From IMG/VR virus record IMGVR_UViG_3300032268_001296, positions 48,198 through 112,197 of that record: DNA of 64,000 nt. The stretch is one strand, 5' to 3'. Shown here piece by piece: positions 18,331 to 61,979 of this stretch. A program made the position numbers and the translations under genes. This DNA is from a virus. Positions within the stretch are counted from its first letter, which is position 1. The number at the start of each line of letters is the position of its first letter. The notes under the pieces are model-generated. The model was not told the origin of the DNA, did no database searches, and was given only the letters and a program-made list of their open reading frames with translations.

Positions 18331-18352
18331 TCTTTTATTTTTACACTTATTA

Positions 18353-31325: not shown

Positions 31326-31326
31326 T

Positions 31327-31620: not shown

Positions 31621-31665
31621 CCTTATGCCTTAATTTATAATAGATAAAAAAGTGTAAAATTCAAT

Positions 31666-44463: not shown

Positions 44464-45505
44464 CTTCTTGAGAAATTCCTAAAATTCTACTCTTCCATTC
44501 TGGCATACCCTCTAAGCGATGAGCTTCTTCTTTAACGAGAGCTTTTTGCATCTCCGCAATCTTAACCATGTTAAGACGCTCTTCTTCATCTTGAAAATAT
44601 TGAATCAAAGAAAGGATAGAGGCATTTTCTTTATGCTTGCTTTTCATGCGCTCAGCACGATCACCCTGAAGCTTTTTTGTTAAATTTTCAATTCGAGTTT
44701 CGCACTGATGATACTCTGAACTTTTTGCTTTAATAATTTCCGACAAACGAACACTCATTTCCTCTTGATCGTTTGTGATATCAAATATATCATTTAACTT
44801 ATTTAAATGTTTGCTAACAACTTCTAGATTAACGATTTCCTTACACACATTCATGTATAAGTTAATTTCATCTGCTGTTAAATCTGGCTTATCCCAAGTT
44901 AAACGAATAAACTCTTGCTCAAATAATTCCCGATCTTCTTTTGATGTATAATTATTAACAATTTTCAAAAATCTTGAGTTATTTAAATTAACACCAAGCC
45001 TCTCTACGCACACTTTATGTTGCCTATTAATCTTATCTTCCTGCAATTCACTACCAGTTGCGTCGTTGATCTTTTTAACGATTCGGCTCGTCGATTTCGG
45101 CGCTACATAACTACTCAAGCCAACATCACTATCTTGCGATGGAGAATAGTCTGGATTGATTTCTTTTATCACCGAGTAAACTGCTCTTTGTTCCAGCGAA
45201 AGAGGTTTCACCTCTCTATCTGGAAATAGAATTTCAGCAATACGCAAGGAAGAAGAACCTGCGTTAGCATGTTCAACGATAAAGCTTACTTGCTCCTTTG
45301 TGAATTCAATGCCTTCCTTTTTTTTGCGAGTAGAAGTTTTAAACTTCAATCCAGTTTCGATCATATAAGATCGAATAAGTCTTCCTTCTTTGCTTCTTCC
45401 ATCGATTTCTGGATTATCGAATACAATACGAACGATCTCGTTAAGATCGGTTGTTTTGCGGTAAGTGCTTTTAATAAGTTCTTTTTGTTCGTCGGTTAGA
45501 TTCAT
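44453..45505 (-). CDS. hypothetical protein (possible terminase small subunit)
   Basis: 350 aa with HTH-like SSLRIAEIL and coiled-coil C-terminus; upstream of terL. Confidence 0.4.
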   Translation of the reverse strand: MNLTDEQKELIKSTYRKTTDLNEIVRIVFDNPEIDGRSKEGRLIRSYMIETGLKFKTSTRKKKEGIEFTKEQVSFIVEHANAGSSSLRIAEILFPDREVKPLSLEQRAVYSVIKEINPDYSPSQDSDVGLSSYVAPKSTSRIVKKINDATGSELQEDKINRQHKVCVERLGVNLNNSRFLKIVNNYTSKEDRELFEQEFIRLTWDKPDLTADEINLYMNVCKEIVNLEVVSKHLNKLNDIFDITNDQEEMSVRLSEIIKAKSSEYHQCETRIENLTKKLQGDRAERMKSKHKENASILSLIQYFQDEEERLNMVKIAEMQKALVKEEAHRLEGMPEWKSRILGISQEDVI

Positions 45506-46176
45506 AATATGATGTCATATTCTCTAATGATTGCTTCGGCTTTTTGCTTAAGCATTTTTTTTAGGTTTTTGATTTGTTTGTAGCCTGCTTTTCTGTTTTT
45601 CTCATTGCTTTTATAACCCATGAATTTAGCAACTTCTTCTTCGCTTTTATGTTCAAAGAAAAGCATTATGTATACCGTGTAATGAGGTTCGGAAAGTTGG
45701 CACTTTAGCAGTTCGTTTAATTTTGAAACAGAATCAGAAAAGTCTACGTTCGAATCTTGTTTTCGATTTATCTCCTGAGCGTGGTTTTCCATTGGTAATG
45801 GAAGCTTAACACCATATCCTGATTGTTTTTGCTTTGTCCACTTTAAGTAATCTGCGCATGATGAGTTTTGTGTTCCATTTTTAGTCATGGCGCAAAGATT
45901 ATCTCCCATATTAAACTTACACTGCATACAAGGCTTTACATAATTTGTATAATTGTTGCGAATGATGTTTTTAATTTGATTCGATGTTATTCTAGCAATC
46001 CAAGGCTCAAGCGGCTTTGATTGATCCCACATGCTCCATTTGTTATATATGTGGATTTTTATTATTTGGGAAACATCGTCGAAATCAAACCAGTTGATAG
46101 CTTTTAATTGCCACTTCTTTCTAAAGCGCTGAATAACAGCATCTATCACCAAAGAATAGTCTTCGTATTTTTTCAA
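45502..46176 (-). CDS. second phage sigma70-family factor with Cys insert
   Basis: DFDDVSQII, WDQSKPLEPWIARITSNQIKN (region 2), CMQC..C..C, SEEEVAKFMG (HTH). TTG start inferred. Confidence 0.7.
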   Translation of the reverse strand: MKKYEDYSLVIDAVIQRFRKKWQLKAINWFDFDDVSQIIKIHIYNKWSMWDQSKPLEPWIARITSNQIKNIIRNNYTNYVKPCMQCKFNMGDNLCAMTKNGTQNSSCADYLKWTKQKQSGYGVKLPLPMENHAQEINRKQDSNVDFSDSVSKLNELLKCQLSEPHYTVYIMLFFEHKSEEEVAKFMGYKSNEKNRKAGYKQIKNLKKMLKQKAEAIIREYDIIL

Positions 46177-46180
46177 ACTA

Positions 46181-46540
46181 TTATTCACGACGAGTTTTGC
46201 TGCTAACGAAATCATCAACGCTAGAAGCTTTTCTGCGTCTGGTAGTTCTTGGCTCGTTGTTAGATTGGCCAAAAATAGAACCTAAAGAAAAACAATTAGA
46301 TTCAGAGTAATTTTCAACTTCTACTTGCAACTTTCTAATAGAAGGAACATATTCAGCATCTGAATTTTCGGGATCGAAATTTTCTTCATCTTCGTCTTCA
46401 TATTCAGAAGCTCTGGTTTTGGAATTTGTAGGTTTGGCTAAAGAAAGTCCTAGTGAACTACCACAGCCCGAACAAAATTTAGGCTTAGAATAATTATAAG
46501 AATGCTTCATGCCGCAATTTGGACAAAACATAGAATTCAT
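46181..46540 (-). CDS. zinc-ribbon protein
   Basis: FCPNCG..KPKFCSGCG. Confidence 0.75.
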   Translation of the reverse strand: MNSMFCPNCGMKHSYNYSKPKFCSGCGSSLGLSLAKPTNSKTRASEYEDEDEENFDPENSDAEYVPSIRKLQVEVENYSESNCFSLGSIFGQSNNEPRTTRRRKASSVDDFVSSKTRRE

Positions 46541-48211: not shown

Positions 48212-48531
48212 TTTTTTTATTTTTTGGTTTTCCGAAAAAGGGTGTGTTTATTTTTTTTACACTTTTATTTGAGTGAATGTCGATGAGGGTGCTACGTTTT
48301 CGAACAATGGGGGGAGGGGTATGGTTTGGTAGGATTGGGGAGGGGAGATTGAAAAAAGGCACCCCCCGCCCTTTTCGCAACTCTGTGATAGATTTTTTTT
48401 TGAGAAATGGGGGGGTGTCAAGCACGAAGCAAGAAATGCGCAGTGTTTTTTTCGTCGGAAAATACAAAGAAAAGCTTGTCACAAGGTCCGCTTTCGCGTT
48501 ACTCTGCTGCCGCGCCGAGCGCATCACCACC

Positions 48532-48801
48532 ATGACCACCACCACCGTCACCACCACCGTCACCACCACCGTCACCACCACCACCGCGCCTTCGCTGGTT
48601 TCGATTGCCAATCGCATTTCCAAAGCGGTTGCAACCAAGGGGGAATGCTATGCAAGCAAATTCGGGCGAATGACTGCATTCATGACGCTTTTGGGAATCG
48701 ATCTTGAGGTTTATTCTCAAGATGGAAGCATCTCCCGCGAAAAACTTTTCGAGATCTTGGAGGCTCTCGCCACCCAAGCGGAAGCTCAAGAGTCTATCTG
48801 A
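48532..48801 (+). CDS. small early protein with Thr-rich N-terminus
   Basis: MTTTTVTTTVTTTVTTTTAPS from a 12-bp ACCACCACCGTC repeat; start corrected using the promoter at 48476-48505. Confidence 0.7.
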   Translation: MTTTTVTTTVTTTVTTTTAPSLVSIANRISKAVATKGECYASKFGRMTAFMTLLGIDLEVYSQDGSISREKLFEILEALATQAEAQESI

Positions 48802-48837: not shown

Positions 48838-49130
48838 GTTCATATGTCTTGTAACTCATTGATCTTTAAGTAGTTACAACAGCTGCAACTCACTGAAAAT
48901 CAACGACTTACATCGAAACGACCCCCGAGGGGGCCGCGTCTGCGTAAGTCGTTGATACTAAGCGACTTACGATCTTTGCAACTCGTTGAAAACCAACGAC
49001 TTGCGTCATGACACAAAAAGGTCTTTATGCCTACTCGTCAAGCACGAAGCAAGAAATGCGCAGTGTTTTTTTCGTCGAAAAATACAAAGAAAAGCTTGCA
49101 ACAAGTCGGTTCATGTCCTACTCTCTGCGC

Positions 49131-49316
49131 ATGGTTATTCCGACCGCCACCACCGCCGCCGATGAAGCCGCCCTCGCTCTCGACATCGAAAAAGAAATGC
49201 AGCGTATCTCTGCCATGAGTAATGAAGAGTTTGTGAATGAGTTCATGAACGGCAAAGATTACCCATACGGGGAATGCGATCCATACGAGAACTACAACTG
49301 GCGAGACGACCGCTAA
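49131..49316 (+). CDS. small acidic early protein, leaderless
   Basis: ATG 6 nt after TACTCT (49119-49124). Confidence 0.7.
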   Translation: MVIPTATTAADEAALALDIEKEMQRISAMSNEEFVNEFMNGKDYPYGECDPYENYNWRDDR

Positions 49317-49324
49317 GTCAAGAA

Positions 49325-49352
49325 AAATCGCTCCGAAAGGAGCGATTTTTTT
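49325..49352 (+). terminator. intrinsic terminator
   Basis: ATCGCTCC-GAAA-GGAGCGAT-TTTTTT; identical hairpin at about 51380-51405. Confidence 0.85.
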
Positions 49353-49413
49353 GTGCCTTTTCCAGAAAAAAAAACTTGACAAAATGAAAAAAAATTGTAA
49401 TGGGTGCGAATCC

Positions 49414-49560
49414 GTAAGTCGTTGAGTATCAATGAGTTACGCAGAAACGGCCCCCTGCGGGGGCCCCATCGATGTAAGTCGTTGAGTATCAATGAGTTAC
49501 GCAGAAACGGCCCCCTGCGGGGGCCCCATCGATGTAAGTCGTTGAGTATCAATGAGTTAC
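49414..49560. repeat. exact 60-bp tandem duplication (palindrome plus 33-bp core)
   Basis: Two identical 60-bp units followed by a third palindrome. Confidence 0.95.
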
Positions 49561-49687
49561 AGTATGACACAAAAGAATCTTGACACGCTGTTGTCAAGCA
49601 CAAAGCAGAAAATGCGGAGAGATTTTTTCTGAGAAAAGAACAAAAAAAAGCTTGTCACAAGGTCCGCTTTCGTGCTACTCTTTGCCC

Positions 49688-50035
49688 GTGAGCAACACCA
49701 ACACCGCCGCCGCCGCCATGAACACCGCCACCGCCACCGTTACCCGCTTTCCGAAACAACGTCAATTTGAAGATGGGGAGCGTTTCCTAACCCGCCGATT
49801 GGCCGAGCTTGTGGAAATGAAACGTTCCACCAAGTTTTATGAAATGGCAGAACTTGGCAAGTCCATCGATACGCTGATGGTTATCCTCGGGGATAAAATC
49901 GCCGAAATCATGTCCGACATCGACAAGGACATGGAAGAAATCGAGAATCTCGAATTGGAAGATAGCGTCGAACTTAGACAACAATTGGACACGGTTGGAG
50001 CGCATGCTCTGGATCTACTGTCCGACGCTATCTAA
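49688..50035 (+). CDS. small early protein, leaderless GTG start
   Basis: GTG 6 nt after TACTCT (49676-49681); acidic coiled-coil C-terminus. Confidence 0.7.
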   Translation: MSNTNTAAAAMNTATATVTRFPKQRQFEDGERFLTRRLAELVEMKRSTKFYEMAELGKSIDTLMVILGDKIAEIMSDIDKDMEEIENLELEDSVELRQQLDTVGAHALDLLSDAI

Positions 50036-50097
50036 GTGTTACTCCTCCCCGCTATCCGAAAGGGTAGCGGGGCTTTTCCCTCTTAACTTAACTTATC

Positions 50098-50238
50098 ATG
50101 TTTCCCGCCACTCCCGAAGAATACGAAGAAATGAAATCGGTTTTTAATAAAATACTTTCCGAAGAAGACGTAGATAATTGGAAATGTCGCCGCTGTGGAC
50201 ATTGCGAAGGTGAATGTCTCTGTGAAGAAAACGATTAA
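50098..50238 (+). CDS. 46-aa Cys-rich peptide (below ORF-track cut-off)
   Basis: MFPATPEEYEEMK...WKCRRCGHCEGECLCEEND, followed by terminator CCCCTC-GAAA-GAGGGG-TTTTTTT. Confidence 0.6.
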   Translation: MFPATPEEYEEMKSVFNKILSEEDVDNWKCRRCGHCEGECLCEEND

Positions 50239-50295
50239 ACTTAAGCCCCTCGAAAGAGGGGTTTTTTTATCTTAAAAAATGCAATATCCACAACT

Positions 50296-50360
50296 CATCT
50301 TCGACATATGCAATGACATATCTTGGAGATATGCGATGACATATCTTCGACATATGTGAT
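50296..50360. repeat. three ~23-bp tandem repeats CATATCTTCGACATATGCRATGA
   Basis: Imperfect palindromic core CATATCT-N3-ASATATG; single related copy at about 53952. Confidence 0.7.
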
Positions 50361-50652
50361 GTAACTCGTTGGCGCTCAACGACTTACGTCGATGGGGCCC
50401 CTGCGGGGTCGTTGCTGCATAACTCGTTGACGTTCAATGACTTGCAATCGTTGTAAGTGACTAATACTCAACGACTTACGTCGATGGGGCCCCCCGCCTC
50501 GGTGTAACTCGTTGATGCTCAATGACTTATATCAGGAACATCATCGATATAACTTGTTGATACTCAATAACTTACGTCGAAGGTAGGGGCCCCATGTGCG
50601 TAACTCGTTGATAATCAATGACTTGCAATGTGTGCAACTCGTTGATAATCAG

Positions 50653-50742
50653 ATATTTACAACTTATGTATTTACAGGTTATCTATTTACAGCTTAAGTA
50701 TTTACAAATAATATATTTACAGCTTACTTTCTTGCAGCTTGT
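50653..50742. repeat. six 15-bp tandem repeats, consensus NTATTTACAGCTTAT
   Basis: Exact 15-bp period; a second array of five at 53970-54044 and a degenerate one at about 59441-59498. Confidence 0.85.
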
Positions 50743-50857
50743 CAAGCACAAAGCAGAAAATGCGGAGAAATTCTTTTCGCGAAACGAGCAAAAGAAAGCT
50801 TGCAACAAGCTCGTTCATCATGCATTCTTTCCCCGTCGCCTGACCTCACTTCCTCTT

Positions 50858-51013
50858 ATGCTCGCTTTCGCTACCCTGACCCTCACCTTCGGAACCGAAG
50901 AAATCTCTTTCCGCGTCGTCGCCAACGAGTGGATGCAATCCTATGTCGATAAGATCGTCGAGCGCGAATCGAGCGCTCGCGGCATGCAGCCCGATTCTGT
51001 CACCTGCCGATAA
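50858..51013 (+). CDS. small early protein
   Basis: MLAFATLTLTFGTEEISF; promoter 50800-50828. Confidence 0.6.
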   Translation: MLAFATLTLTFGTEEISFRVVANEWMQSYVDKIVERESSARGMQPDSVTCR

Positions 51014-51099
51014 AAGTGCAAAAGAAAGCTTGCCACTAAGCCCATTTCCTGCCACTCTGTCCCCGCGCCGAGCGCCTCACCACCCACTCCACCACCACC

Positions 51100-51369
51100 A
51101 TGACCCTGCCATTCCCTGCCGATTCCGCCGAGTTCGAAGAATACACCTCCGTCATGGAGGCAATGGCCGATGAGGCCGAAGCGTCCACGCCCGATCCCGA
51201 GCCCGAGGACTTCGAACGAGACGACTACCACCCGAACTCGCAAGAGGAGGACGAAGCCTACTGGGCGAGCATGGAGGAGCGGGACTACGGCGGTGAGGAC
51301 TCCTACCTAGATGCCTACTGGGAGGACCAAGCCGAATATGGCATGGAGGGTTGCTGCGGCGACTTCTGA
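51100..51369 (+). CDS. highly acidic 89-aa early protein (possible DNA mimic)
   Basis: About one third Asp/Glu, almost no basic residues; own promoter 51030-51058. Confidence 0.7.
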   Translation: MTLPFPADSAEFEEYTSVMEAMADEAEASTPDPEPEDFERDDYHPNSQEEDEAYWASMEERDYGGEDSYLDAYWEDQAEYGMEGCCGDF

Positions 51370-51671
51370 GTCAAGCGAAATCGCTCCGAAAGGAGCGATT
51401 TTTTTGTGCCCTCGTCTGAAAAAAAAGCTTGACAAAATACGCAAACATCGTAAAGAATCAATTCGCGTAACTCGTTGAATATCAATGACTTACACCGAGG
51501 CGGGGGGCCCCAGCCCCGTAACTCGTTGAGTATCAGTGAGTTACGTATGTTTCGCCTTTGCCATACCCTGTGATTCTTGTCAAGCGAAAGCAGAAAATGC
51601 GTAGTCTTTTTTTCTGCGGAAAATACAGAAAAGATCTTGCGCCAAGTCGGTTCCCGCTGTATTCTCTGCGC

Positions 51672-51965
51672 ATGACGAACGACGAACTTCTCGCCCTGCC
51701 AATCGGAACCTTCACCAACTTCGGCGTTTTCCGTGGCGTTGAATACCGTGTGGATACCAACGGCAACAAGTGGCCAGTCGCTACTTTCCGCAACTTGGAG
51801 CATGGAACCTCGAAGATTCCTTTCAACGCTTGCTTGATCGGAGGTGTCCGCACTTTCGACAGCTTGGAAATCATCACGGAAGAGCGTTGGGAATGGATGA
51901 AGCAACAGCGTGAAGAAATGGTTAAGCGTTATCTCGATACTCTGCCTCATGGCGCTGCTGTCTAA
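51672..51965 (+). CDS. small early protein, leaderless
   Basis: ATG 6 nt after TATTCT (51660-51665). Confidence 0.7.
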   Translation: MTNDELLALPIGTFTNFGVFRGVEYRVDTNGNKWPVATFRNLEHGTSKIPFNACLIGGVRTFDSLEIITEERWEWMKQQREEMVKRYLDTLPHGAAV

Positions 51966-51990
51966 GATAAAAATTAAATAAAAAAACAAT

Positions 51991-52260
51991 ATGTCAAAAC
52001 GCATTATCTCTTGTCAGGTGTGGGAATGGTATGGTTCCGAAGACTTTACCGAGGGCCGATATAAAGCAAAAGGTGGACAAGAGTTTATCTTTGACGCTAC
52101 TTCTGAAACGGAAGCTCTCGATGAAGACGAACTTATCGAAAAGTTTAACTCCGTGTTTAATCGCCACGGCAGATGGTATCGTTACGAAGCGAAAGATGTT
52201 GACTACTACTTCGAGCCTGTAAAGGTTACTTTTGTGAATGGGGAATTTCAAGCAGTTTAA
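51991..52260 (+). CDS. hypothetical protein
   Basis: 89 aa, GRYKAKGGQEFI. Confidence 0.7.
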   Translation: MSKRIISCQVWEWYGSEDFTEGRYKAKGGQEFIFDATSETEALDEDELIEKFNSVFNRHGRWYRYEAKDVDYYFEPVKVTFVNGEFQAV

Positions 52261-52279
52261 CAATAAAAATACATTAAAA

Positions 52280-52444
52280 ATGAAAGCTATCTTGTTTGGT
52301 CTTTTGCACCTCGCTCCTCTTGTTGGTATCTTTATGATCGCCATCAATCATGAGCCTATCTATCACGCTATCGGAACCGCTATGCTGTGCATGTCTGCTC
52401 TTGTCTTGGGCTATATCCACGGAATCAACAAGTCATTCGGTTAA
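52280..52444 (+). CDS. small two-helix membrane protein
   Basis: MKAILFGLLHLAPLVGIFMIAI..AIGTAMLCMSALVLGYI. Confidence 0.6.
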   Translation: MKAILFGLLHLAPLVGIFMIAINHEPIYHAIGTAMLCMSALVLGYIHGINKSFG

Positions 52445-52660
52445 GTTAGCCTCAGTCGTAACTCGTTGAGCGTCAACGAGTTACGCATATGGGGCCCCCG
52501 CCTCGGCGTAAGTCATTAGTAATCAACGAGTTACGAACTCAGCTTCTTTATCGCAAAATCCAGTTCCGTCAAGCAAAAAGCAGAAATGCGGAGAGATTTT
52601 TTTTCAGAAAAGAGCAAAAAAGATCTTGCGGCGAGTCGGTCCCCGTGCTACTCTTTGCGC

Positions 52661-52792
52661 ATGGAAATCTTCGCCATTTACCGCAACCAGACCGTCGCTC
52701 TTCTTGGATTCGAGGGCGACGAAGCCCTGATTTCATTCGATGACGGTGGGGAAGAATACGTTGCAATCGAAAGCCTCGACATTCTTCCTTAA
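52661..52792 (+). CDS. 43-aa acidic SH3-like peptide, leaderless
   Basis: ATG 6 nt after TACTCT (52649-52654); ALISFDDGGEEYVAIESL. Confidence 0.6.
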   Translation: MEIFAIYRNQTVALLGFEGDEALISFDDGGEEYVAIESLDILP

Positions 52793-52850
52793 AAAAACCC
52801 TTGCGCGGGTTCGATCCCCGTGCTACTCTTTCCCTGTCAGCAAAACCACC

Positions 52851-53087
52851 ATGAACATTTCCCACTTTCAACGCTCCAAAGAAATCGTTAAGATTGATAT
52901 CTCTGCGATGTCTAAGAAAGATATCAACACGTTGATGCAGGAAGTTATCAATATCCTTAACTTCTCCAGACTTACATACTTTCATCAACAAACTAATTGG
53001 GAAGTGCAAATGATCATTAGTCTTGAGAAGTTTCGTCAAAATTGTCTATCTACTTTGAAGTCTGCGCCGAAATACACTAATCAATAA
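52851..53087 (+). CDS. hypothetical protein
   Basis: Promoter 52801-52829; ACCACC-ATG start. Confidence 0.6.
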   Translation: MNISHFQRSKEIVKIDISAMSKKDINTLMQEVINILNFSRLTYFHQQTNWEVQMIISLEKFRQNCLSTLKSAPKYTNQ

Positions 53088-53093
53088 AAAAAT

Positions 53094-53210
53094 ATGGACT
53101 CCACACTTCCCATCATCACTCTTGTCGGATTGTTTTTCTTTACTTGTTTTTGCATGGCTTCTTTCTTTATCGGCTCCGCAATTGGAGAATTTATTGTCTC
53201 TCTGTTTTAA
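53094..53210 (+). CDS. 38-aa hydrophobic membrane peptide
   Basis: MDSTLPIITLVGLFFFTCFCMASFFIGSAIGEFIVSLF, upstream of the lysozyme. Confidence 0.5.
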   Translation: MDSTLPIITLVGLFFFTCFCMASFFIGSAIGEFIVSLF

Positions 53211-53225
53211 GTTTTAAACAATAAA

Positions 53226-53792
53226 ATGAAAGCCCTTACCTTTTCTTTTCTTATGTTTTCTTTGGTTGTCGCTTTGGCACTGCAAACAGTAAATCCTATT
53301 GTTTACTCTAAAAATTTCCCTATCGTAGTTAAGCCCAAAAAACAATATGTTGTTTGGCAAGATAAGATGATCCAAGGCATCAAGTCTTTTGAATCTTTCA
53401 AGCCCGCGCCATATCGTTGTCCCGCTGGTGTTCTAACTGTCGGATATGGTCATACTGGTAAGTTCGCGTCTCAATATGTTAATAAACAACAGGCCGAAAA
53501 ACTACTGATTGAAGAAGTTAATTACTATCGCCAAATTGTTTTGCGTAATGTTAAAGTTCCTCTTACGGAATATCAACTTTGCGCACTAACTTCTTTTGCT
53601 TTTAATACTGGAGAAGCTAATCTCCAAAAACTTATCAATGGAAGGAATAGACTTAACTCTGGTAATTATGATAGCGTGGCGAAGCTTATGCCTATGTATC
53701 GTAAGGGTGGGGGAAAAGTGCTTAAAGGTTTGGTTAAGCGTAGAGCGTGGGAAGTTAGCGTATGGAATGGCGTTATAGATATGCGCGGCTGA
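53226..53792 (+). CDS. GH24 phage lysozyme with N-terminal signal/anchor
   Basis: Catalytic E-x8-C-x5-T (FESFKPAPYRCPAGVLTVGYGHT), ALTSFAFNTG, GLVKRRAWE; hydrophobic N-terminus. Confidence 0.9.
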   Translation: MKALTFSFLMFSLVVALALQTVNPIVYSKNFPIVVKPKKQYVVWQDKMIQGIKSFESFKPAPYRCPAGVLTVGYGHTGKFASQYVNKQQAEKLLIEEVNYYRQIVLRNVKVPLTEYQLCALTSFAFNTGEANLQKLINGRNRLNSGNYDSVAKLMPMYRKGGGKVLKGLVKRRAWEVSVWNGVIDMRG

Positions 53793-54107
53793 AGCTTTTT
53801 ATAACTCGTTGAGCGTCAACGACTTGCGAATCTCTGTAAGTCGTTGATTGTCAACGAGTTACGCCGAGGCGGGGGGCCCCATCGACGTAAGTCGTTGATT
53901 TTCAATGGGTTATGCCGATTGTAAGTCTTTGAGAATCAATGAGTTATACAGCATATCTTCAGCATATGTCTATTTGGCGAATGCGTATTTGCAGCTTATC
54001 TATTTGCAGCTTATGTATTTACAGCTTATTCGTTTACAGCTTGTCAAGAAAAAAAATAGAGAAAAAAAGATTTTGACAAACCAAGGAAACCCAAGTAGGT
54101 TTCACCC

Positions 54108-54251
54108 ATGAAATTCATTCTGTCTTTGATCTTTCGCCGCCGTAAGCCTGTTCTTGGTCCGCAAGTCTTTGCAAGGAAAACTTGGCTCGAAAAGCAAGTT
54201 GAAGAAGCTCAGTATCAGCAATCAAAAAAATTGATTTTGGGCATTGACTGA
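54108..54251 (+). CDS. 47-aa basic peptide, leaderless
   Basis: TTGACA(54073)-17-TAGGTT-6 nt-ATG. Confidence 0.6.
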   Translation: MKFILSLIFRRRKPVLGPQVFARKTWLEKQVEEAQYQQSKKLILGID

Positions 54252-54277
54252 TTCCAGAAAACCTCTAAGCTTTCTCC

Positions 54278-54607
54278 ATGCTCACCACGCAAGAAGTTGA
54301 CCAATACATTCGCCTGACTCTGAAACAATGGGGCTTGGCTCACTTGACCATCGAATGGTTCGAATCAAAAAGGTTTTTGGGTCTTGCTTGCGTTTACGAT
54401 GATAAAATCAAATTAAATGTTTTGATTCTGAACCGCTTCAGTTTGTTTGATGAGGTTCTAAAGCATGAGATTGCCCACTTTCTGACTTTCGAAGCGAACG
54501 GCAAGAAGTTTTTGCGCAAGAATAATCGTTGGCAACTTCACGGCGCGGATTTCAAAGCTCAATGCCGTCGAATGAAAATTCCCGCAAGAACTAGAATCCC
54601 TGTTTGA
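54278..54607 (+). CDS. SprT-like zinc metalloprotease, leaderless
   Basis: LGLA, IKLN, VLKHEIAH, HGADFK; TTGACT-16-TAAGCT-6 nt-ATG. Confidence 0.8.
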   Translation: MLTTQEVDQYIRLTLKQWGLAHLTIEWFESKRFLGLACVYDDKIKLNVLILNRFSLFDEVLKHEIAHFLTFEANGKKFLRKNNRWQLHGADFKAQCRRMKIPARTRIPV

Positions 54608-54641
54608 CTCATTCTGTTTTTTGGTTCATTCTCTCGCCGCC

Positions 54642-54785
54642 ATGAAAAAGCCCAAAACTCTCTCCAAAAACTCTCTTGACATGCGCAACTTAGTGCGGCA
54701 TACTTGCCCGCCGCCCGCCTTCTCCTTCCCAAGCAAAAAGAAACAACAAAACAAGAAAGCCTGCCGCCATGACCGAAACTACTGA
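54642..54785 (+). CDS. 47-aa basic peptide
   Basis: TTGACT(54604)-17-CATTCT-9 nt-ATG; MKKPKTLSKN..SKKKQQNKKACR. Confidence 0.5.
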   Translation: MKKPKTLSKNSLDMRNLVRHTCPPPAFSFPSKKKQQNKKACRHDRNY

Positions 54786-54969
54786 AGAAATTGAATACAT
54801 CCCCACTTGGTCAAGTAATCTTGATCTTTTGCTTGGAGATTGGGCGCATGCCAAGTGCGCAAAAGTTCGTAACGCTGTAAAAGAAGAATTGAATCGTATG
54901 GCTGCTTTAGCTGATGCTTATGAAGCAAGCACAAAAGAAACAACAAAACAAGAAAGCCTGCCGCGATGA
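54769..54969 (+). CDS. small protein, paralogue A
   Basis: PTWSSNLDLLL..EELNRMAALADA. Confidence 0.7.
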   Translation: MTETTEEIEYIPTWSSNLDLLLGDWAHAKCAKVRNAVKEELNRMAALADAYEASTKETTKQESLPR

Positions 54970-55145
54970 ACCAAACGATTGATTGTACTCCTACATGGAC
55001 AGAAAGCCTTCCCCTCCTTTTGCGCATCCTGAAAGATGGAACCACTGCCGAGGGTCGCAAGATCGCAGAAGAAGAATTGTTTCGCATGGCACAAGTTGCT
55101 GATGCTCACGTAGCAAGCGCAAAACAAAAGAAAATTTCTGGTTGA
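54966..55145 (+). CDS. small protein, paralogue B (59 aa, absent from ORF track)
   Basis: MNQTIDCTPTWTESLPLLL..EEELFRMAQVADAH. Confidence 0.7.
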   Translation: MNQTIDCTPTWTESLPLLLRILKDGTTAEGRKIAEEELFRMAQVADAHVASAKQKKISG

Positions 55146-55415
55146 CATGGTGAGGTAACATGGTAGGGGAGTTGTGGTGGCTCCCCTACCTAACCCACTA
55201 AGTATCAACGAGTTACGCCGACGCGGGGGGCCCCGTGCCCGTAAGTCGTTGATAATCAATCACTTGCGTCATGACACAAAAAGTGTTTGACAGTATCCCG
55301 TCAAGCACAAAGCAAAAAATGCACAGTGTTTTTTTCTCAGGAAAATGCCGAAAAGAGCTTGCAACACCTCGGTTTTTCATGCATTCTTTCCCCGTCACCT
55401 GACCCCACAAACCAA

Positions 55416-55850
55416 ATGAACCTGACTCAAGACCTCACCACTGGAATCCTCATCGCCTTCATCTTCATTGGCATTTTCGCCGTCATCGTCACAATCTTCG
55501 TTGAAGCAATCGACCAAAAAAAACACAAGAAAGAGCTTGAATCCATCCGCGAAAAAGCGCACAATCTCCCCGCCAACAAAGTCAAAACTATGCAAACCGA
55601 ACTCGACAACCTGATCGCACAAACCAAAGGTAAGTTCTTCTCGATCACCTTCGTGAAGAAAGACGGCTCCGTCCGCGTCATCAACGGCAAGGACAAGTAT
55701 CAACGCTTGCTCAAGGGCGGCGTGAACAATGTCTCCGTCGCGGGATACGTTCCCTTCGTCAACCGCAACACCGAAACTTGGGCATCTGCTCACAAGGATG
55801 CGGTTGTGACCTTCCGCTGCGGCAAGCTTGTCAAGCAAGTTTCCGCTTGA
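55416..55850 (+). CDS. N-terminal TM helix plus WYL_2/SH3-like domain
   Basis: GILIAFIFIGIFAVIVTIFV then KFFSITFVKKDGSVRVING; terminator at 55861-55891. Confidence 0.6.
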   Translation: MNLTQDLTTGILIAFIFIGIFAVIVTIFVEAIDQKKHKKELESIREKAHNLPANKVKTMQTELDNLIAQTKGKFFSITFVKKDGSVRVINGKDKYQRLLKGGVNNVSVAGYVPFVNRNTETWASAHKDAVVTFRCGKLVKQVSA

Positions 55851-56201
55851 CATCCCCACGCCGCTCCCCGAAAGGGGAGCGGTTTTTTTTTGCGCAATCG
55901 CGAAAAAATCTCTTGACAAAAAAAGAAAATGTCGTAAAGCGATTCAAGTCATAAGTCGCTAATACTCAATGAGTTACACCGATGGGGCCCCCCGCGCCCG
56001 CGTAAGTCCTTGATACTCAACGAGTTACGTAAGCTGCACCTCTACTGCAAAAACTCTGCGCGTCAAGCAGAAAGCAAAAAATGCGGAGAAAAAAGAATCT
56101 CACGAAAACAATGTGAAATGTGTGGACAAATCCGCTGCATGTGGTATCTTCTCCCTGTCGCCGCTGATGGCGACCAACTCCAAACCAAAGCAAATACTAC
56201 C

Positions 56202-57005
56202 ATGGCCCTCATCATCGCAAAAAACAAGGTTTCCGCTGATCAACTCGCGACCGTCGCGACTCCTGACCGCACCGATTCTTTCACCCCGATTCCCCATTTC
56301 GACCTTGTTTCCCTTACGCGGGACGCTATCGGTCGGGCTGGTTTGAGCGTGGACATCGAAGAGCATTCACTGGCTCGCGGCGGGCAACGCTACTTCGGCG
56401 GGTTTGCTCTCAAGGGCGCGGACATCTCGGGCGCGGATCGTCAAATCGTTCTTGGTCTGCGCAACGCTCACGACAAGAGCTTTGCCGCCTCGATCTGCGT
56501 CGGCAATCGGATGCTGGTTTGTGAAAATCTTTGCTTCTCTTCTGATGTGAAGCTTGCCCGCCGCCACACGACCAACATCATGGCGGATCTTCCCCGCGTG
56601 CTGTCGGATGCTGTTTCCCGTGTCGTTTCTCACTGGAATGACATGGAAAAGCGGATCGAGCTTTACAAGGAAACGGAAATCGGTCGCGACCGTGCGGCGG
56701 ATCTCCTGATCGACCTTGTGGATTCCAAGGCTTTCCCCGCTCGCGACATCTACAACGCGATTCAGGAATTCCGCAATCCCCGCCACGTGGAATTCAAGGG
56801 CGGCACTCTCTGGACGCTTTACAACTCGATCACCGAAAACCTCAAGGGTGGCGACCTTTCCAAGCTTCCGTTTCGCACGATGACGGCGCAAAGCGTTTTC
56901 GACCGCATCGCGGGGCATCGTCCGCAGATTGTGGTTGACATCGACGCTGCCGACGCTGGCACGGATGACGAAGCGGAAGCGCCGACCGTGGTGATTTCCG
57001 CTTGA
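56202..57005 (+). CDS. DUF932-family phage/plasmid protein
   Basis: LGLRNAHDKSFAASICVGNRMLVCENL, RRHT, TLWTLYNSITE; terminator at 57016-57045. Confidence 0.75.
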   Translation: MALIIAKNKVSADQLATVATPDRTDSFTPIPHFDLVSLTRDAIGRAGLSVDIEEHSLARGGQRYFGGFALKGADISGADRQIVLGLRNAHDKSFAASICVGNRMLVCENLCFSSDVKLARRHTTNIMADLPRVLSDAVSRVVSHWNDMEKRIELYKETEIGRDRAADLLIDLVDSKAFPARDIYNAIQEFRNPRHVEFKGGTLWTLYNSITENLKGGDLSKLPFRTMTAQSVFDRIAGHRPQIVVDIDAADAGTDDEAEAPTVVISA

Positions 57006-57309
57006 CAAACCAAAGACGCTCCCCGAAAGGGGAGCGTTTTTTTTTGCGCAGTCCGCGAAAAATTTCTTGACAAAAAAAGAAAATGCCGTAAAGAGCACAA
57101 AGTCATAAGTGACTGATAATCAACGAGTTACATCGAGGCGGGGGGCCCCATGTCCGTAAGTCGTTGATAATCAACGAGTTACATCATGACACAAAAAGTT
57201 CTTGACTCTGCCCTGTCAAGCAGAAAGCAGAAAATGCGCAGTGTTTTTTTTCGACATTCACGCAAGAAATCCCTTGCAATGCTCGCCCGTGCTGGTATCT
57301 TTCGCCCGT

Positions 57310-58008
57310 ATGCAACTCCTCAACTCTGGAAACGCCAAGACCCGCAAAGGTGAAAAGCTCGGTTTCATCACGTTCGGCATTCACCTCGCGCCCGCTAACT
57401 TGTCGGGTTTTAACGTGTGCAAAGATGCAAGCGCTGGCTGTGCTGCCGCTTGTCTCAACACTGCGGGACGTGGTGCAATGTCTTCTGTCCAGCGTGCGCG
57501 TATCGCCAAGACACGCTTGTTTTTTACCGATAAAAATACTTTCCTCACTTCTTTGTGGGACGAGGTTTCTAAGGCTATCCGCAAGGCTAAGAAAAATGAT
57601 ATGCAACCTTGCTTTCGTCTTAACCTTACTTCGGATCTTCCGTGGGAAAAGATTAAACTTAACGGCGTGACTGTCTTTGACGCTTTCCCTGATGTCCAGT
57701 TTTACGATTACACTAAAATCCCTTCCCGCATGTCTGCTTTCCTTGCTGGGGACATGCCCGCAAACTATCATTTGACTTTCTCGCGCAGCGAAAGCAATGG
57801 TGAAATTGCGGATGCTATCCTTAAGTCAGGCGGCAATGTCGCAATGGTTTTCCGCAAGTATCTTCCGACGCATTACAAGGGCGCGGAAGTTATCGACGGC
57901 GACGATACAGACTTGCGTTTCCTCGATGGACATGGTAAGGTAATCGGGCTTAAGGAAAAGGGCCTTGCTAAGAAAGACGAAAGCGGTTTTGTTCTTGAGC
58001 CTCAATAA
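57310..58008 (+). CDS. Gp88-like phage protein (CxxxC, radical-SAM-like barrel)
   Basis: VCKDASAGCAAACLNTAGRG, FRLNLTSD, QFYDYTK, YHLTFS, DGDDTDLRFLD. Confidence 0.7.
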   Translation: MQLLNSGNAKTRKGEKLGFITFGIHLAPANLSGFNVCKDASAGCAAACLNTAGRGAMSSVQRARIAKTRLFFTDKNTFLTSLWDEVSKAIRKAKKNDMQPCFRLNLTSDLPWEKIKLNGVTVFDAFPDVQFYDYTKIPSRMSAFLAGDMPANYHLTFSRSESNGEIADAILKSGGNVAMVFRKYLPTHYKGAEVIDGDDTDLRFLDGHGKVIGLKEKGLAKKDESGFVLEPQ

Positions 58009-58059
58009 AATGGACATTTTAAATTTTCTTCTTCTAACGTTTTGTCTTTTAACTCTTAC

Positions 58060-58272
58060 ATGGAAACGCTAGTTCTTCATAGTATCTTACATACTGAGCT
58101 TGGCCATTTCTTTGTTTGCCTTGTCGTGACACAAGATAGTGAACAGCTCACTTGCCATAAGATAGAAACATCAAACGGTGTCGATGTCATCATGCCACCG
58201 CAGGATCTGGACAAGGAGACTCATGATAACTTAAAAGATAAGCTAATCCACCTGCTAGATAAAACCATGTAA
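58060..58272 (+). CDS. hypothetical protein
   Basis: 70-aa ORF after the Gp88-like gene. Confidence 0.45.
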   Translation: METLVLHSILHTELGHFFVCLVVTQDSEQLTCHKIETSNGVDVIMPPQDLDKETHDNLKDKLIHLLDKTM

Positions 58273-58545
58273 TAGGCATATCCGCAACTCGTTGAGGTCC
58301 AGCGAGTTGCGCCAATGCAAGAAAAAAATCCCCTGACGTAAGTCGTTGATTATCAACGAGTTACGGACATGGGGCCCCCCGCGTCGGCGTAAGTCCTTGA
58401 GTATCAGCGACTTACGAATGCGACTCCTTTACCGCAAAAATCATTCTCGTCAACAAGAAAGCAGAAAATGCGGAATCTTTTTTTCGTGAGAAAATACAAC
58501 TAAAAGCTTGCGCTGATCCGCTTCCCGCCGTATTCTCTCCCCGCG

Positions 58546-58926
58546 ATGCAAACGTTTCAAGTCCCTATCGGTCAGCAAGTGCGGGTTTACTTTAACCTTC
58601 ACAAGAAAATGCTATCGGTCCAAACTAAACAAAATGGACAGTGGAAACTTATTGGACATGCCGAAGATGTTTATCTTCACAATGTTACGTTTAAGGTGTC
58701 GGAAGCTGGTCGCCAACGTGTGATTAAAAACAAAAGAAAGAACGTTCATGCCTTCATCATTGGCGAAATCACCGATGGTTTCAAATCTCTGGATCTCGAT
58801 CCTTTCCTTACTGTAAGATACAATCCTTACGAGATGGATAAGTTTCAGTGTCGGGGCGAGAACATCTCTTCTGCGAAAACCGTTATCATCAACGGTCGCC
58901 ACGTTTATGCGCAAAATCCTCAATAA
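58546..58926 (+). CDS. conserved-looking phage hypothetical protein
   Basis: VRVYFNLHK, VSEAGRQRV..KRKNVHAF, YNPY; promoter 58508-58536. Confidence 0.75.
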   Translation: MQTFQVPIGQQVRVYFNLHKKMLSVQTKQNGQWKLIGHAEDVYLHNVTFKVSEAGRQRVIKNKRKNVHAFIIGEITDGFKSLDLDPFLTVRYNPYEMDKFQCRGENISSAKTVIINGRHVYAQNPQ

Positions 58927-58938
58927 ATAATCAATAAA

Positions 58939-59247
58939 ATGAGCCTCAACAAAGCAATCAAACACGGTAAAGAAAAGCGCAAAGAATACTATGGTTCACA
59001 AGCGTTTGCTCATAGCTGCCGCCCGCATGGCAACTGTCCTTACTGCGAAGGTAATCGCAAGTTCTTTGATAAGAAAGCTCGTGTTCGAGCAAACAAACAA
59101 GAACAAATGCAAGACTACTGTGACTCTTATGTTGGCGCGGGCGATCCTACTTGCGCCATGATGGACTTTCAAGAAGTTGTTGCGCGAAAGATTGGCGTTG
59201 ATATCTTTGAACTGTGTATGGTGGAAGAAGACTGGAGCGTGCAATAA
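58939..59247 (+). CDS. small Cys/His-motif protein
   Basis: KAIKHGKEKRK, SCRPHGNCPYCEGNR. Confidence 0.7.
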   Translation: MSLNKAIKHGKEKRKEYYGSQAFAHSCRPHGNCPYCEGNRKFFDKKARVRANKQEQMQDYCDSYVGAGDPTCAMMDFQEVVARKIGVDIFELCMVEEDWSVQ

Positions 59248-59547
59248 GATAAGGTGTCTGTAACTCGTTGAAGGTCAACGAGTTACGTGGATGCACCTCT
59301 TCCTCATAAGTCCTTGAACGTCAACGACTTACGTCGAGGCGGGGGGCCCCGTCCGCGTAACTCCTTGAACCTCAGTCACTTACAACGAATCGCTATAAGT
59401 CGTTGATGCTTAATGAGTTGGGGGATGTTCCCCTACACGCTTATTTGATGCTTATTTATTTACAAATTTATTATTTAGTATTTTTCTGTTTAGCATTTTG
59501 CCTCTCCCTTAGTATTATGCTAAAGGAGAGGCGCTTATTAAGTCAGA

Positions 59548-60300: not shown

Positions 60301-60711
60301 TTATTCTTCGCCTGCTTCGTCTTGGTAGCCGCCGATATTGTATTCGTTGTTTCGAGAACTGATTTGCTGCATGAAGTTTTCGAACTTCACTTGAGATTCC
60401 ATCACAAGGCGAGCACGTTTAATTGCGCGGCGAGTGAACTGCATCACCATACCAGAATCTCGGCGACCTGCAACCTTATTTTTGCCGAAATGTTCATCCC
60501 ACACGCGGAAGTATTCCTTAATAATAAGAAACTTTTTGAACTGCTCGACGCTGCTCATGTAAAGCAGGTGATTGAACAGATGGTCGGAATGGTTGCTGCC
60601 AAAGATGTTTTCGGCAAGTGTGGCTTCTTCAATTGCTTGCTGCTTGTTGCCAATCAGTCCGATGGCAATTCCGAGACCGTTGTTGGAGACGATGTAGTGT
60701 AGAGGATTCAT
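60301..60711 (-). CDS. hypothetical protein
   Basis: TTGACG-17-TAATTT-9 nt-ATG. Confidence 0.7.
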   Translation of the reverse strand: MNPLHYIVSNNGLGIAIGLIGNKQQAIEEATLAENIFGSNHSDHLFNHLLYMSSVEQFKKFLIIKEYFRVWDEHFGKNKVAGRRDSGMVMQFTRRAIKRARLVMESQVKFENFMQQISSRNNEYNIGGYQDEAGEE

Positions 60712-60801: not shown

Positions 60802-61701
60802 TTACACCTTGGCCAAAACTCGAATGCCTGCATTGGTGATCTTTCGAGTTCCCTCGATCTTGATCAATGCCTTGCGCAGCAGGTAGGTTTCGATATCGCG
60901 CTGAATGGCAGTGCGAGACATACCAGTTGCAGCGCTCAGCATGCCCAGCGTGCAGTCGCCACGTTCCTTGAGAATAGAAAGAACTTCCATTTCCGTGTTG
61001 TTAAGTCCGTGAACGTTGATGCCAACCAGACCGCGCAATTCATTCCATGCGGTGCGAGTGAACTTGGCGCTGTTCTTTGCCTCGCAATACATTTCAATTT
61101 CTTTGGTTCGCTTGACTGCATCGCGAGCATTGCCACGAACAGTTTCTGCGATCTCAGCAACCAAGCCATCTTCGAACTCTACCCAGTCCAAACGCTTTTG
61201 AATGATCGATCCCAGCTCGATCTCGTTGTAGGGTTTGAAGTCCACAACAGTGAAGCGATCCTTGAGAGGAGGAAAGATCTTGTCGAGTTCGGTAGTCGCA
61301 AAGATATAAGTTTGCTTTTCGAAGTTGAATTCGAAAGTGGACTCACGCCACGAAACCTGCTTGGAGCGTGCGCTTTCCACGTTGAAAACAGTAAGGAAGA
61401 CTTGTTGCAGCTCCTTCGGCAGATTGTGAGCCTCATCAAACAAAATGGTGATTTCGTTGTCCATGATGACAGGCATGAAAACCTGCTCGAAAAACTGCTG
61501 ATTGTTTTTGATGGTTGCGCAGTTGATTTCCAGCAGTGGCTTCTTCAGACTCTTGGCGAATTCCTTGGCGAACTCAGTCTTACCCAGTCCCTTAGCACCG
61601 TTGAACATGAGGAAGGGAGTAAGACCAGTTGCTTTGTGCGCTTCCAAGTAGAAGTTGAGGCGGCTCTTGAGACCTTCTTGACCAATGAGGTTGTCGAACA
61701 T
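60802..61701 (-). CDS. ruvB: RuvB-like Holliday junction branch-migration ATPase
   Basis: LIGQE, GAKGLGKT, FDEAH, FATT, PLKDRF, RGNAR, winged-helix IETYLLRKALI..RKIT. Confidence 0.8.
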   Translation of the reverse strand: MFDNLIGQEGLKSRLNFYLEAHKATGLTPFLMFNGAKGLGKTEFAKEFAKSLKKPLLEINCATIKNNQQFFEQVFMPVIMDNEITILFDEAHNLPKELQQVFLTVFNVESARSKQVSWRESTFEFNFEKQTYIFATTELDKIFPPLKDRFTVVDFKPYNEIELGSIIQKRLDWVEFEDGLVAEIAETVRGNARDAVKRTKEIEMYCEAKNSAKFTRTAWNELRGLVGINVHGLNNTEMEVLSILKERGDCTLGMLSAATGMSRTAIQRDIETYLLRKALIKIEGTRKITNAGIRVLAKV

Positions 61702-61736: not shown

Positions 61737-61979
61737 TTAGAACGAAGTGATCTTGAACTCGATCTTCGGCATTTCTTCCTGCGGCTCGGTGGCAGGTGCG
61801 ATGGAGAGAGTAGCGGGTTTTTCACCCGTGTCAATACCATTTTCGCGAAGAAAAACTTTCGACACTGGAACAATCAGTTGATCGCCCATCAGTGCAACCA
61901 GATCGCAGAGACGAATCTTGACGAAAGAATTGCTGCCTGCTGGACGACCACGACGTTTTGCGTTTGCTTCGTTGCTCAT
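61737..61979 (-). CDS. small protein with AT-hook-like RRGRP motif
   Basis: KRRGRPAGSNSFV; promoter TTGACG-17-TAGGTT-9 nt-ATG. Confidence 0.65.
   Translation of the reverse strand: MSNEANAKRRGRPAGSNSFVKIRLCDLVALMGDQLIVPVSKVFLRENGIDTGEKPATLSIAPATEPQEEMPKIEFKITSF

Follow-up and report, generated by a model that had tools for sequence, protein, structure and literature searches.

Paired palindromes punctuate a compact array of plus-strand genes in an uncultured lake phage, and the reading favored here, with a probability of about 0.6, is that they constitute a multi-copy paired dyad operator that controls the promoters of this presumably early cassette array. The DNA analysed is a stretch of 64,000 nucleotides (the window), which forms the right-hand 64 kb of a 112,197-bp viral contig of IMG/VR (record IMGVR_UViG_3300032268_001296; linear class, 87% complete). 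Palindromes of this type precede nearly every early gene cassette, both in this phage and in 66 related contigs.

The repeated unit is a 29-bp site, C-GTAASTCGTTGA-N3-TCAACGASTTAC-G, of which 35 copies with up to five mismatches start between 48851 and 59395 of the window. A search for GTAASTCGTTGA-N3-TCAACGASTTAC at up to three mismatches returned 25 matches in the window, all between 48885 and 59332, and none in shuffled sequence. The scan of the whole phage proposed by the first-pass annotation was also run: copies occur only at 48851-59421, a reversed control pattern gave no match, and the remainder of the 112,197-bp contig holds none, which confines the palindrome to one 10.6-kb stretch of 112 kb. 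The copies form eleven separate sites. Start-to-start spacing is 51 bp in eight pairs and 50 bp in one, and with the pair 55190/55241, whose left arm is degenerate, this count agrees with the ten pairs at 50-51 bp described earlier; the auxiliary palindromes said to be added at 34-35 bp were recovered as well, together with spacings of 58-60 bp. The eleven sites are as follows.

48851 to 49004: cluster of four palindromes (48851, 48885, 48944 and 48978; spacing 34/59/34) with a GC hairpin-type core at 48912-48943.
49414 to 49560: three identical palindromes in a 60-bp register, a tandem duplication, the hairpin GGCCCCC-TGC-GGGGGCC lying in each spacer.
50361 to 50660: cluster of seven palindromes (50361, 50419, 50453, 50504, 50549, 50600 and 50634), core 50480 reversed.
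51467 to 51544: palindrome pair, 51 bp, core 51494-51517 forward, at the centre of the dyad 51428-51584.
52458 to 52534: palindrome pair, 50 bp, core reversed.
53801 to 53947: cluster of four palindromes (35/51/34), core 53863 forward.
55190 to 55267: palindrome pair, left member degenerate, core 55217 forward.
55951 to 56028: palindrome pair, 51 bp, core reversed, at the centre of the dyad 55912-56067.
57105 to 57182: palindrome pair, 51 bp, core forward, at the centre of the dyad 57066-57220.
58284 to 58415: three palindromes (54/51), core 58365 reversed, a hybrid of cores 55217 and 57132.
59260 to 59421: last cluster, four palindromes (46/51/38), core 59333 forward.

Direct reading of the cores between paired palindromes upheld the two orientations that had been reported, forward at 51494, 53863, 55217, 57132 and 59333 and reversed at 50480, 52485, 55978 and 58365. 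Core 53863 differs by one base from the reverse complement of core 50480, and core 58365 reads like 55217 in its left portion and like 57132 in its right. The three complete dyads of about 156 bp are present as described. The proposed unit CTTGAC...GTCAAG thus exists in three full copies, but it is not the boundary of the repeat: in repeat families D4-D6 the copies stay homologous beyond CTTGAC and GTCAAG, into the terminator on the upstream side and the promoter on the downstream side, and the repeated unit is the entire intergenic module of terminator, element and promoter. The same continuation of homology beyond the proposed ends led to the rejection of a miniature inverted-repeat transposable element, such as the Correia element.

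Several further features of the repeats were observed. The triplet at 49414-49560 is an exact 60-bp tandem duplication of palindrome plus GC hairpin and is apparently recent. Positions 53837-53953 are an inverted copy (117 nt, 81%) of 50413-50529 and link two multi-palindrome clusters, both of which adjoin CATATC-type short repeats and tandem arrays with a 15-bp unit (TATTTACAGCTTATS, 4-5 copies; 50654-50734 and 53971-54051). The third array of this kind occupies 59442-59492, where the plus-strand array stops.

Conservation of the site across relatives is strict. The exact palindrome occurs in 81 stretches of 66 IMG/VR contigs, with 473 copies at up to three mismatches, and position weights from 453 distinct copies in these contigs and the window extended the site to 29 bp; A3, A4, T10 and their mirror positions are 99-100% conserved. 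Pair spacing in the relatives is 50 bp in 117 cases, 51 bp in 18 and 48 bp in 15, and a minority of pairs stand at 58-60 bp, in which case the spacer is a GC hairpin. Between paired palindromes the spacer measures 21-24 bp and averages 87% GC, and its sequence is not conserved between genomes (similarity 0.725 within a contig against 0.571 between contigs). The core CGAGGCGGGGGGCCCC is specific to this lineage, and the general design is palindrome, GC block, palindrome. Both core orientations are also found in other genomes, and among 93 similar core pairs within contigs, 69 share an orientation and 24 are opposite. In three further large genomes the arrays occupy one or two compact regions adjoining a block of PhoH, sigma and TerL genes. 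An 11.9-kb contig binned as Enterobacterales (L088) carries a variant array with diverged palindrome pairs 42 bp apart, so that the register can differ between lineages. Full-text literature searches with the half-site strings matched only primers.

Whether selection acts on a hairpin or on double-stranded DNA can be read from the way in which the arms vary. At 12 of the 13 mirror pairs, complementarity equals the product of the column frequencies, as expected under independence. Complementary pairs at position 5/23 number 271 against 283 expected, and only 1 of 72 deviations at position 9/19 is compensated; the single excess, at position 8/20 (313 against 271), is due to a symmetric TCCTTGA...TCAAGGA variant. 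The two S positions behave in the same way (observed C/G 169, C/C 140, G/G 90 and G/C 54; expected 177, 132, 82 and 62). Because mirror positions vary independently, selection is on a double-stranded, two-fold symmetric site and not on a hairpin. The unit folds well as a single strand (z -3 to -6.4), as any palindrome can, and Rfam searches at E values up to 0.1 gave no family match apart from one chance microRNA hit. A double-stranded dyad whose half-sites degrade independently is what a dyad operator would present, and this symmetry points to a symmetric protein binder. Each half-site specifies 12-13 consecutive base pairs, which exceeds the usual reading of a helix-turn-helix (HTH); a subunit would therefore have two reading elements, or a palindrome four subunits. 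The earlier proposal of a protein-bound site would accordingly fit a strictly conserved dyad without compensatory arm changes.

The location of the palindromes ties them to transcription. They are intergenic in 477 of 498 copies, 103 of 132 pairs lie between co-directional genes, and the median pair stands 70 bp past the upstream stop codon and 106 bp ahead of the next start. A cassette promoter of the form TTGNNN-N16-18-TANNNT-N5-8-ATG is found within 260 nt on exactly one side of 97 of the 144 distinct pairs and on both sides of 3, against a background of about 0.1 per side. This is a sigma-70-type promoter with its predicted start at the A of the start codon, and hence the mRNA would be leaderless. 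Distances from pair to -35 element fall into classes of about 15, 25, 36-37, 47, 69-71, 80-81, 91, 101 and 111-112 bp. In a Rayleigh analysis the peak lies at 10.5-11 bp and periods of 8-9 and 12-14 bp give a flat response, with P=0.003 against a jitter null (maximum over periods, 68 modules de-duplicated at 70% identity). The helical phasing of pairs to the cassette promoter is suggestive.

A second promoter class stands in a fixed relation to the palindrome, as a dyad operator would. TTGAC occurs exactly 33 nt from the arm at 36 of 894 arms, where about 1.3 would be expected, and 55 more times at 30-34 nt. In 26 of the 36 a hexamer starting with TA follows after a 16-nt spacer (TAAAGA, TATAGA, TAATAA and others); the -10-like consensus is TAAAGA/TATAGA, often with TG or G in front. 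These are credible promoters with predicted starts 3-4 nt before the palindrome, which would then cover about +4 to +30, the classical place of a blocking operator. Such a promoter accompanies 24 of 94 elements whose orientation was set by the cassette promoter, on the upstream side in 9 (sense) and on the downstream side, pointing back, in 19 (antisense), with 4 elements having both. In the window, four elements have the sense promoter and eight a GTCAAG arm, which yields the three complete dyads; the 156-bp dyad is a form belonging to this lineage, in which the simpler core unit is flanked by one promoter at either end. The promoters and terminators read in the window are listed here.

49376 to 49413, plus strand: predicted inward sense promoter TTGACA-N16-TAATGG, 33 nt before the palindrome.
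51429 to 51466, 55913 to 55950 and 57067 to 57104, plus strand: predicted inward sense promoters TTGACA-N16-TAAAGA/C, start 3-4 nt before the palindrome.
51545 to 51584, minus strand: GTCAAG arm (TTGAC on the minus strand), 32-34 nt past the distal palindrome.
49037, 49593, 52568, 55300, 56062, 57215 and 58449: other GTCAAG arms, several with a -10-like hexamer at a spacer of 16-17.
51637 to 51674, plus strand: predicted cassette promoter TTGCGC-N17-TATTCT-N6-ATG with a leaderless start.
49096 to 49133, 52626 to 52663 and 57274 to 57312, plus strand: predicted cassette promoters of the same type.
Intergenic 51014 to 51102 and 52793 to 52853: promoter-only copies that lack palindromes.
51381 to 51405, plus strand: predicted intrinsic terminator (GC hairpin and T run) that ends the preceding cassette and belongs to the repeated module.
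About 49328 to 49352, 55860 to 55890 and 57016 to 57045, plus strand: other predicted intrinsic terminators.

Taken as an operator, the element might work as follows. The palindrome would be bound by a symmetric protein, a dimer that may have two reading heads for each half-site, and the two complexes of a pair, on one face of the helix, would bind cooperatively and act on the promoters of the early cassette array. A TTGACA promoter that fires into the palindrome would be blocked by occupation of the site over about +4 to +30. At the main, leaderless promoter, the complex would sit at helically phased upstream centres of about -64, -74, -85, -96 and so on, from which it would switch the promoter; a joint shut-off of the early genes once the binder has accumulated is the most likely outcome, and a boost of early genes is less likely. 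The cooperative operator offered as one option in the first-pass annotation would agree with the fixed 50-bp register and the fixed promoter geometry. Several observations weigh against this model. At 60-160 bp upstream of the cassette promoter, most pairs are remote by the standard of a classical repressor, and the phasing falls to P=0.44 when each distance value is counted once, so that shared descent of the modules may inflate it. The requirement for a GC-rich spacer is left unexplained by an operator. Profiles for HTH_3, HU/IHF and ParB_N found no match in four array-bearing genomes (G000, G005, G006 and G007), and the one conserved helical candidate, described below, may by its position be a small terminase subunit.

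About 70 phage proteins were scanned against Pfam, PHROGs and NCBIfam for a candidate binding protein, and no regulator was found among them. The scans recovered lysozyme, SprT, DUF932, GP88, L5 gp82, PhoH, two ECF-like sigmas, a RuvB-like protein, replication enzymes and sugar enzymes. Gene families common to the four genomes number 33 and comprise replication, nucleotide, sugar and virion functions, the two ECF-like sigmas and a few unknowns. One of these stands out as a candidate: a 350-aa protein (44453-45505, minus strand), present in 39 loci at 41-98% identity, is the sole conserved unknown with a DNA-binding appearance. Its predicted structure (predicted local distance difference test score, pLDDT, 78) has a pair of three-helix bundles at the N terminus, together with a long coiled coil; it has no PDB match by fold or profile, Atlas matches were unnamed phage clusters only, and no homologue was found in five Fibrobacter genomes. 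Further candidates are the products of 61737-61979 and 60301-60711 and two small beta-rich proteins, encoded at 37898-38116 of G000 and 55416-55850 of the window.

Other identities for the site were tried and set aside. IHF was dropped, as the right half-site holds WATCAANNNNTTR only if the free centre supplies WA (A15 in 44% of copies). A likeness to ECF-sigma promoters (GTAAC...CGAS, resembling sigma-X) failed on an internal spacer of 14 nt rather than 16-17 and on gene starts at variable distances. A ParB/KorB-type operator or centromere was rejected, PF02195 having no match in the four genomes. A gene beside the array (60802-61701, minus) encodes a 299-aa protein that matches RuvB along its entire length (E 1e-28, below the family cut-off) and carries a winged helix at the C terminus; directly upstream of this gene is that of an 80-aa protein (61737-61979, minus) with an RGRP AT-hook-like N-terminus. 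This gene pair stands beside the array in some relatives and is outside the four-genome core.

The array itself is set off from its surroundings. Every gene between 48.3 and 59.4 kb lies on the plus strand, and the GC content there is 0.42-0.52, compared with 0.30-0.36 elsewhere; minus-strand genes flank it on both sides, for PhoH, an ECF-like sigma and TerL on the left and for an Api92-like protein and a RuvB-like AAA+ protein on the right. It encodes lysozyme, an SprT-like protease, DUF932, GP88 and an L5-gp82-like protein; literature searches on DUF932 returned nothing on function. Several cassette genes open with ACC/GCC codon repeats (48521-48591, 49142-49160, 49690-49738 and 51075-51105), which give Thr/Ala/Pro-rich low-complexity N-termini directly after the leaderless start. 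A tape measure protein encoded by an open reading frame of 2,756 aa identifies the phage as a long-tailed siphovirus. Isolates are very distant: TerL (about 25%) and Pol III alpha (about 29%) are only 25-30% identical to theirs. Among 50,697 GenBank phage records, a megablast of the 12-kb array and a blastn of one 91-bp unit gave nothing useful. The core genes include two that are sigma-like (window 45502-46272, minus, and 15004-15573, plus), and the first resembles ECF-type models, including Bacteroidota- and Verrucomicrobia-type subfamilies, at scores below the cut-offs. The sigmas are ECF-like, yet the array promoters are of the TTGACA/TATAAT type, and so different polymerase holoenzymes probably read two gene classes. 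Genome G000 also encodes, at 16280-16936, 17787-18452 and 29684-32730, a Mom-family protein, a sulfotransferase and two glycosyltransferase-like core genes, which suggests that the phage DNA or virion is chemically modified.

Read depth sheds light on how the array may enter the cell. In the source run, depth is 18.2 on a 61.7-kb contig ending at 48446 and 38.8 on an 8.8-kb contig spanning 54935-63742, with values of 36-44 inside the array. The doubling coincides with the start of the plus-strand array (48.45-48.6 kb) and persists to at least 63742. The two ends of the phage contig do not overlap. A collapsed direct terminal repeat of at least 15 kb, beginning at the array start, is probable from this one sample, and such a repeat would suggest a T5/SPO1-like architecture in which the array is the first DNA to enter. 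Logan contigs of the same run break at the palindrome repeats, so that cassette order rests on the original assembly; a 22-kb relative agrees for most cassettes.

The palindrome is also found in cells. Among one genome each of 185,579 species, the exact sequence occurs only in four Fibrobacter metagenome-assembled genomes and in four small phage-like contigs. Fibrobacter genomes carry 4-9 dispersed single sites at up to three mismatches (control 0), and in a sample of 201 Fibrobacterota genomes, 43 had a site with no more than two mismatches (control 0). Half of the Fibrobacter sites examined represent one orthologous locus, between the gene of a giant Big_9/cadherin surface protein (adhesin) and a diverging operon for a 136-aa protein, an M23 peptidase and a 149-aa lipoprotein-like protein. 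The Fibrobacter sites (L086, L087, L090, L092, L094-L101 and L105-L124) look like an undescribed regulon, and their neighbours showed no homology to phage proteins except for one glycosyltransferase-like match. Since the same palindrome is chromosomal in Fibrobacter, a cellular protein that reads it probably exists. Fibrobacter is nevertheless an unlikely host: the few loci read have Shine-Dalgarno sites and TAnnTTTG-like motifs, as opposed to the TTGACA/TATAAT-type promoters and leaderless genes of the phage. In two small contigs binned as Bacteroidota (L089 2853-2879 and L093 2587-2613) a single perfect palindrome lies directly after a tRNA 3' end and is followed by a T run, like a terminator; in L016, too, a tRNA ends just before the element.

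Against this background, the alternatives to an operator can be weighed. The first-pass annotation saw a site recombinogenic at its centre, which could shuffle cassettes and was compared with PeSL (promoter early stem-loop) elements, attC and REPIN. The elements would then be crossover points for site-specific or homology-driven exchange, and the arrays are indeed highly mosaic, with cores in both orientations, one of them a hybrid, cores homogenised within genomes, and a 117-nt inverted duplication that joins two clusters. This is nonetheless very unlikely. The search for a recombinase or HUH protein elsewhere in the genome, which had been suggested as a check, was extended to all four array-bearing genomes: the tyrosine recombinase profile PF00589 had no match in G000, G005 (100% complete), G006 or G007, whereas the control matched in 14 of 14 genomes, and profile searches of the same genomes, run with positive controls, found neither a serine recombinase or resolvase nor a HUH Y1 transposase (PF01797, RAYT). 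When all open reading frames of the loci were clustered and the frequency with which a family keeps the same downstream neighbour was scored, adjacency inside the arrays was kept in 20% of cases across element junctions and in 29% where there is no element (34% where such a gap is at least 60 bp). That is a small gap in a region that is mosaic everywhere: the array is mosaic throughout, and the element is at most a weakly preferred border. The indels resolved against the closest relative do not end at palindromes. One 251-bp gene has been inserted at a plain gene border, and a cassette absent from the window was deleted from inside a core to a gene end rather than from palindrome to palindrome; other resolved junctions in relatives lie partly at modules and partly at plain gene borders. 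Homology-driven exchange, moreover, has no need of the palindrome sequence, which is under selection. Gene conversion among repeats is a simpler explanation for the two orientations, the hybrid core and the similarity of cores within genomes, and core orientation would then drift by conversion and be irrelevant to function. Specific versions were rejected on similar grounds: an integron attC array by the absence of PF00589 from the four genomes, by an invariant sequence whose arms do not covary and by cassettes that carry their own promoters, and a REP/REPIN system with RAYT by the absence of PF01797, the restriction of copies to one 10.6-kb stretch and the lack of selection for pairing. The repeated origin, also raised earlier, belongs to a broader idea in which an initiator, working with the 15-bp iterons, or a small terminase uses the sites for origin firing or for forming the terminal repeat. 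The 15-bp tandem arrays that follow three clusters, the helical 350-aa protein that is encoded two genes from TerL and could be a small terminase, and the position of the arrays next to packaging genes and near the contig ends in G000, G006 and G007 speak for it. It is highly improbable all the same, as ten or more promoter-tied sites per genome suit neither an origin nor a pac site, the 87% GC spacer is the opposite of an AT-rich unwinding element, and G005 has two separate arrays.

A structural role, in which cruciforms or RNA hairpins serve as a supercoil sink, gyrase site, insulator or processing site like REP or BIME elements, is quite unlikely. The good folding of the single strands, the placement of the elements after terminators, and the presence in the phage of a RuvB-like AAA+ gene beside the array and a GHKL ATPase would suit it, but an element kept for structure alone retains pairing, and here the sequence is kept to the base with no compensatory arm changes, the S positions are mismatched in about half of the copies, and the RuvB-like gene is outside the four-genome core. 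A different function is conceivable for a protein already present at infection, supplied by the host or delivered with the virion: 30-plus high-affinity sites on the DNA that probably enters first would capture it, and would thereby pause or organise the incoming DNA or titrate a host regulator off its own regulon. The twofold depth fits a terminal repeat starting at the array start, Fibrobacter chromosomes carry the identical palindrome at dispersed positions, profile searches recognised no regulator encoded by the phage, and a repeat- and palindrome-rich stop signal in T5 first-step-transfer DNA provides a precedent (bioRxiv 10.1101/866236). Entry gating or decoy sites are still unlikely, because the depth evidence comes from one sample, exact sites among the 185,579 species are limited to Fibrobacter and the four small phage-like contigs, Fibrobacter is itself an improbable host given its differing start and promoter signals, and a decoy has no need of the tight link between pair and promoter. 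It is similarly unlikely that the palindrome is the recognition code of a new DNA-binding protein family used by cells and phages alike. Its sites would mark a small regulon with giant adhesin genes in Fibrobacter; in a large clade of lake phages, at least 30 high-affinity copies on terminally redundant, first-entering DNA would capture a host or virion-borne protein and so gate the entry and expression of a host-takeover array or, by operator mimicry, titrate a host regulator. The paired dyad operator remains the preferred reading, and of the functions listed in the first-pass annotation the protein-bound site and the cooperative operator are supported, while shuffling and the origin are not.

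The element resembles several described phage repeats, namely Cluster O dyads, Cluster A stoperators and PeSLs, yet it differs from each in defining features. Cluster O mycobacteriophages carry a 17-bp dyad, TGTTCGG-N3-CCGAACA, for which a dimeric binder was predicted and the function left open by the authors (PMC4351075, PMC6439249). Both systems have invariant inverted arms with three free bases between them, at least 30 mostly intergenic copies per siphovirus genome that become denser towards one end, and no integrase. The Cluster O sites, however, are single and scattered, one third of them in genes and most of them off promoters, whereas the present site spans 29 bp, is paired at 50 bp round a GC spacer, occurs in a single array and is linked to promoters. 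Stoperators of Cluster A, read by L5 gp71-type repressors, are 13-bp asymmetric sites that are bound by a monomer and whose orientation follows transcription (PMC9283540, PMC6550527). As with those sites, many copies lie in short intergenic gaps of an early arm that one protein could silence, and the present array has homologues of L5 gp82 and gp88; in contrast, its sites are paired, 29 bp long and palindromic rather than asymmetric, and neither a gp71-like nor an HTH_3 protein was found (for HTH_3, in the four genomes). PeSLs of T4-like phages are composite early-promoter and terminator motifs whose role is to provide homology for exchange (PMC4122927, PMC2839356). Like them, the module described here repeats a terminator and an early promoter between small variable ORFs in a hyperplastic region, with a hairpin and T run followed by a TTG...TAnnnT promoter. 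PeSLs lack an additional conserved pair of protein sites, and in the present element it is the dyad that is constant across distant genomes while promoter and terminator sequences vary.

Better-known control regions would share parts of this logic. At lambda OR/OL with CI, and with p4 of phi29, cooperative dimers occupy dyads in helical register, block one promoter and act on its neighbour. Those systems place a few sites at one control region, whereas here one design recurs at more than ten control regions and the spacer is a long GC block. KorB, a ParB-family protein of IncP plasmids, binds single 13-bp palindromic OB sites. The palindromic operator, about a dozen repeats per replicon and variable promoter distances are common to OB and the present site, but the four array-bearing genomes lack a ParB_N domain. 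In T5 first-step-transfer DNA, the repeats occupy one untranslated 1.2-kb block with DnaA boxes (bioRxiv 10.1101/866236). Both T5 and the present array have repeats or palindromes inside a long terminal repeat with the earliest genes, the terminal repeat being suggested here by twofold depth, while the present sites are spread between cassettes; no DnaA boxes were noticed on reading the array sequence, for which no formal scan was made.

The early "host-takeover" regions of large uncultured phages are mostly unreadable, consisting of small unknown genes with no known control logic. In dozens of lake phages, one well-defined cis-element now marks every control region of such an array, and it provides a handle with which arrays can be found, cassettes and promoters (many of them leaderless) delimited, and the regulator baited. 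Because Fibrobacter is culturable and has the same 27-bp palindrome, it offers an experimental route to the protein family, and the sharing of one recognition sequence by a phage clade and a bacterial genus calls for an explanation. A binder from a new protein family common to the phages and Fibrobacter, or one that controls the entry of DNA, would make the element far more interesting. A binder that switches every cassette together would be the master switch of the early programme in a widespread group of freshwater phages.

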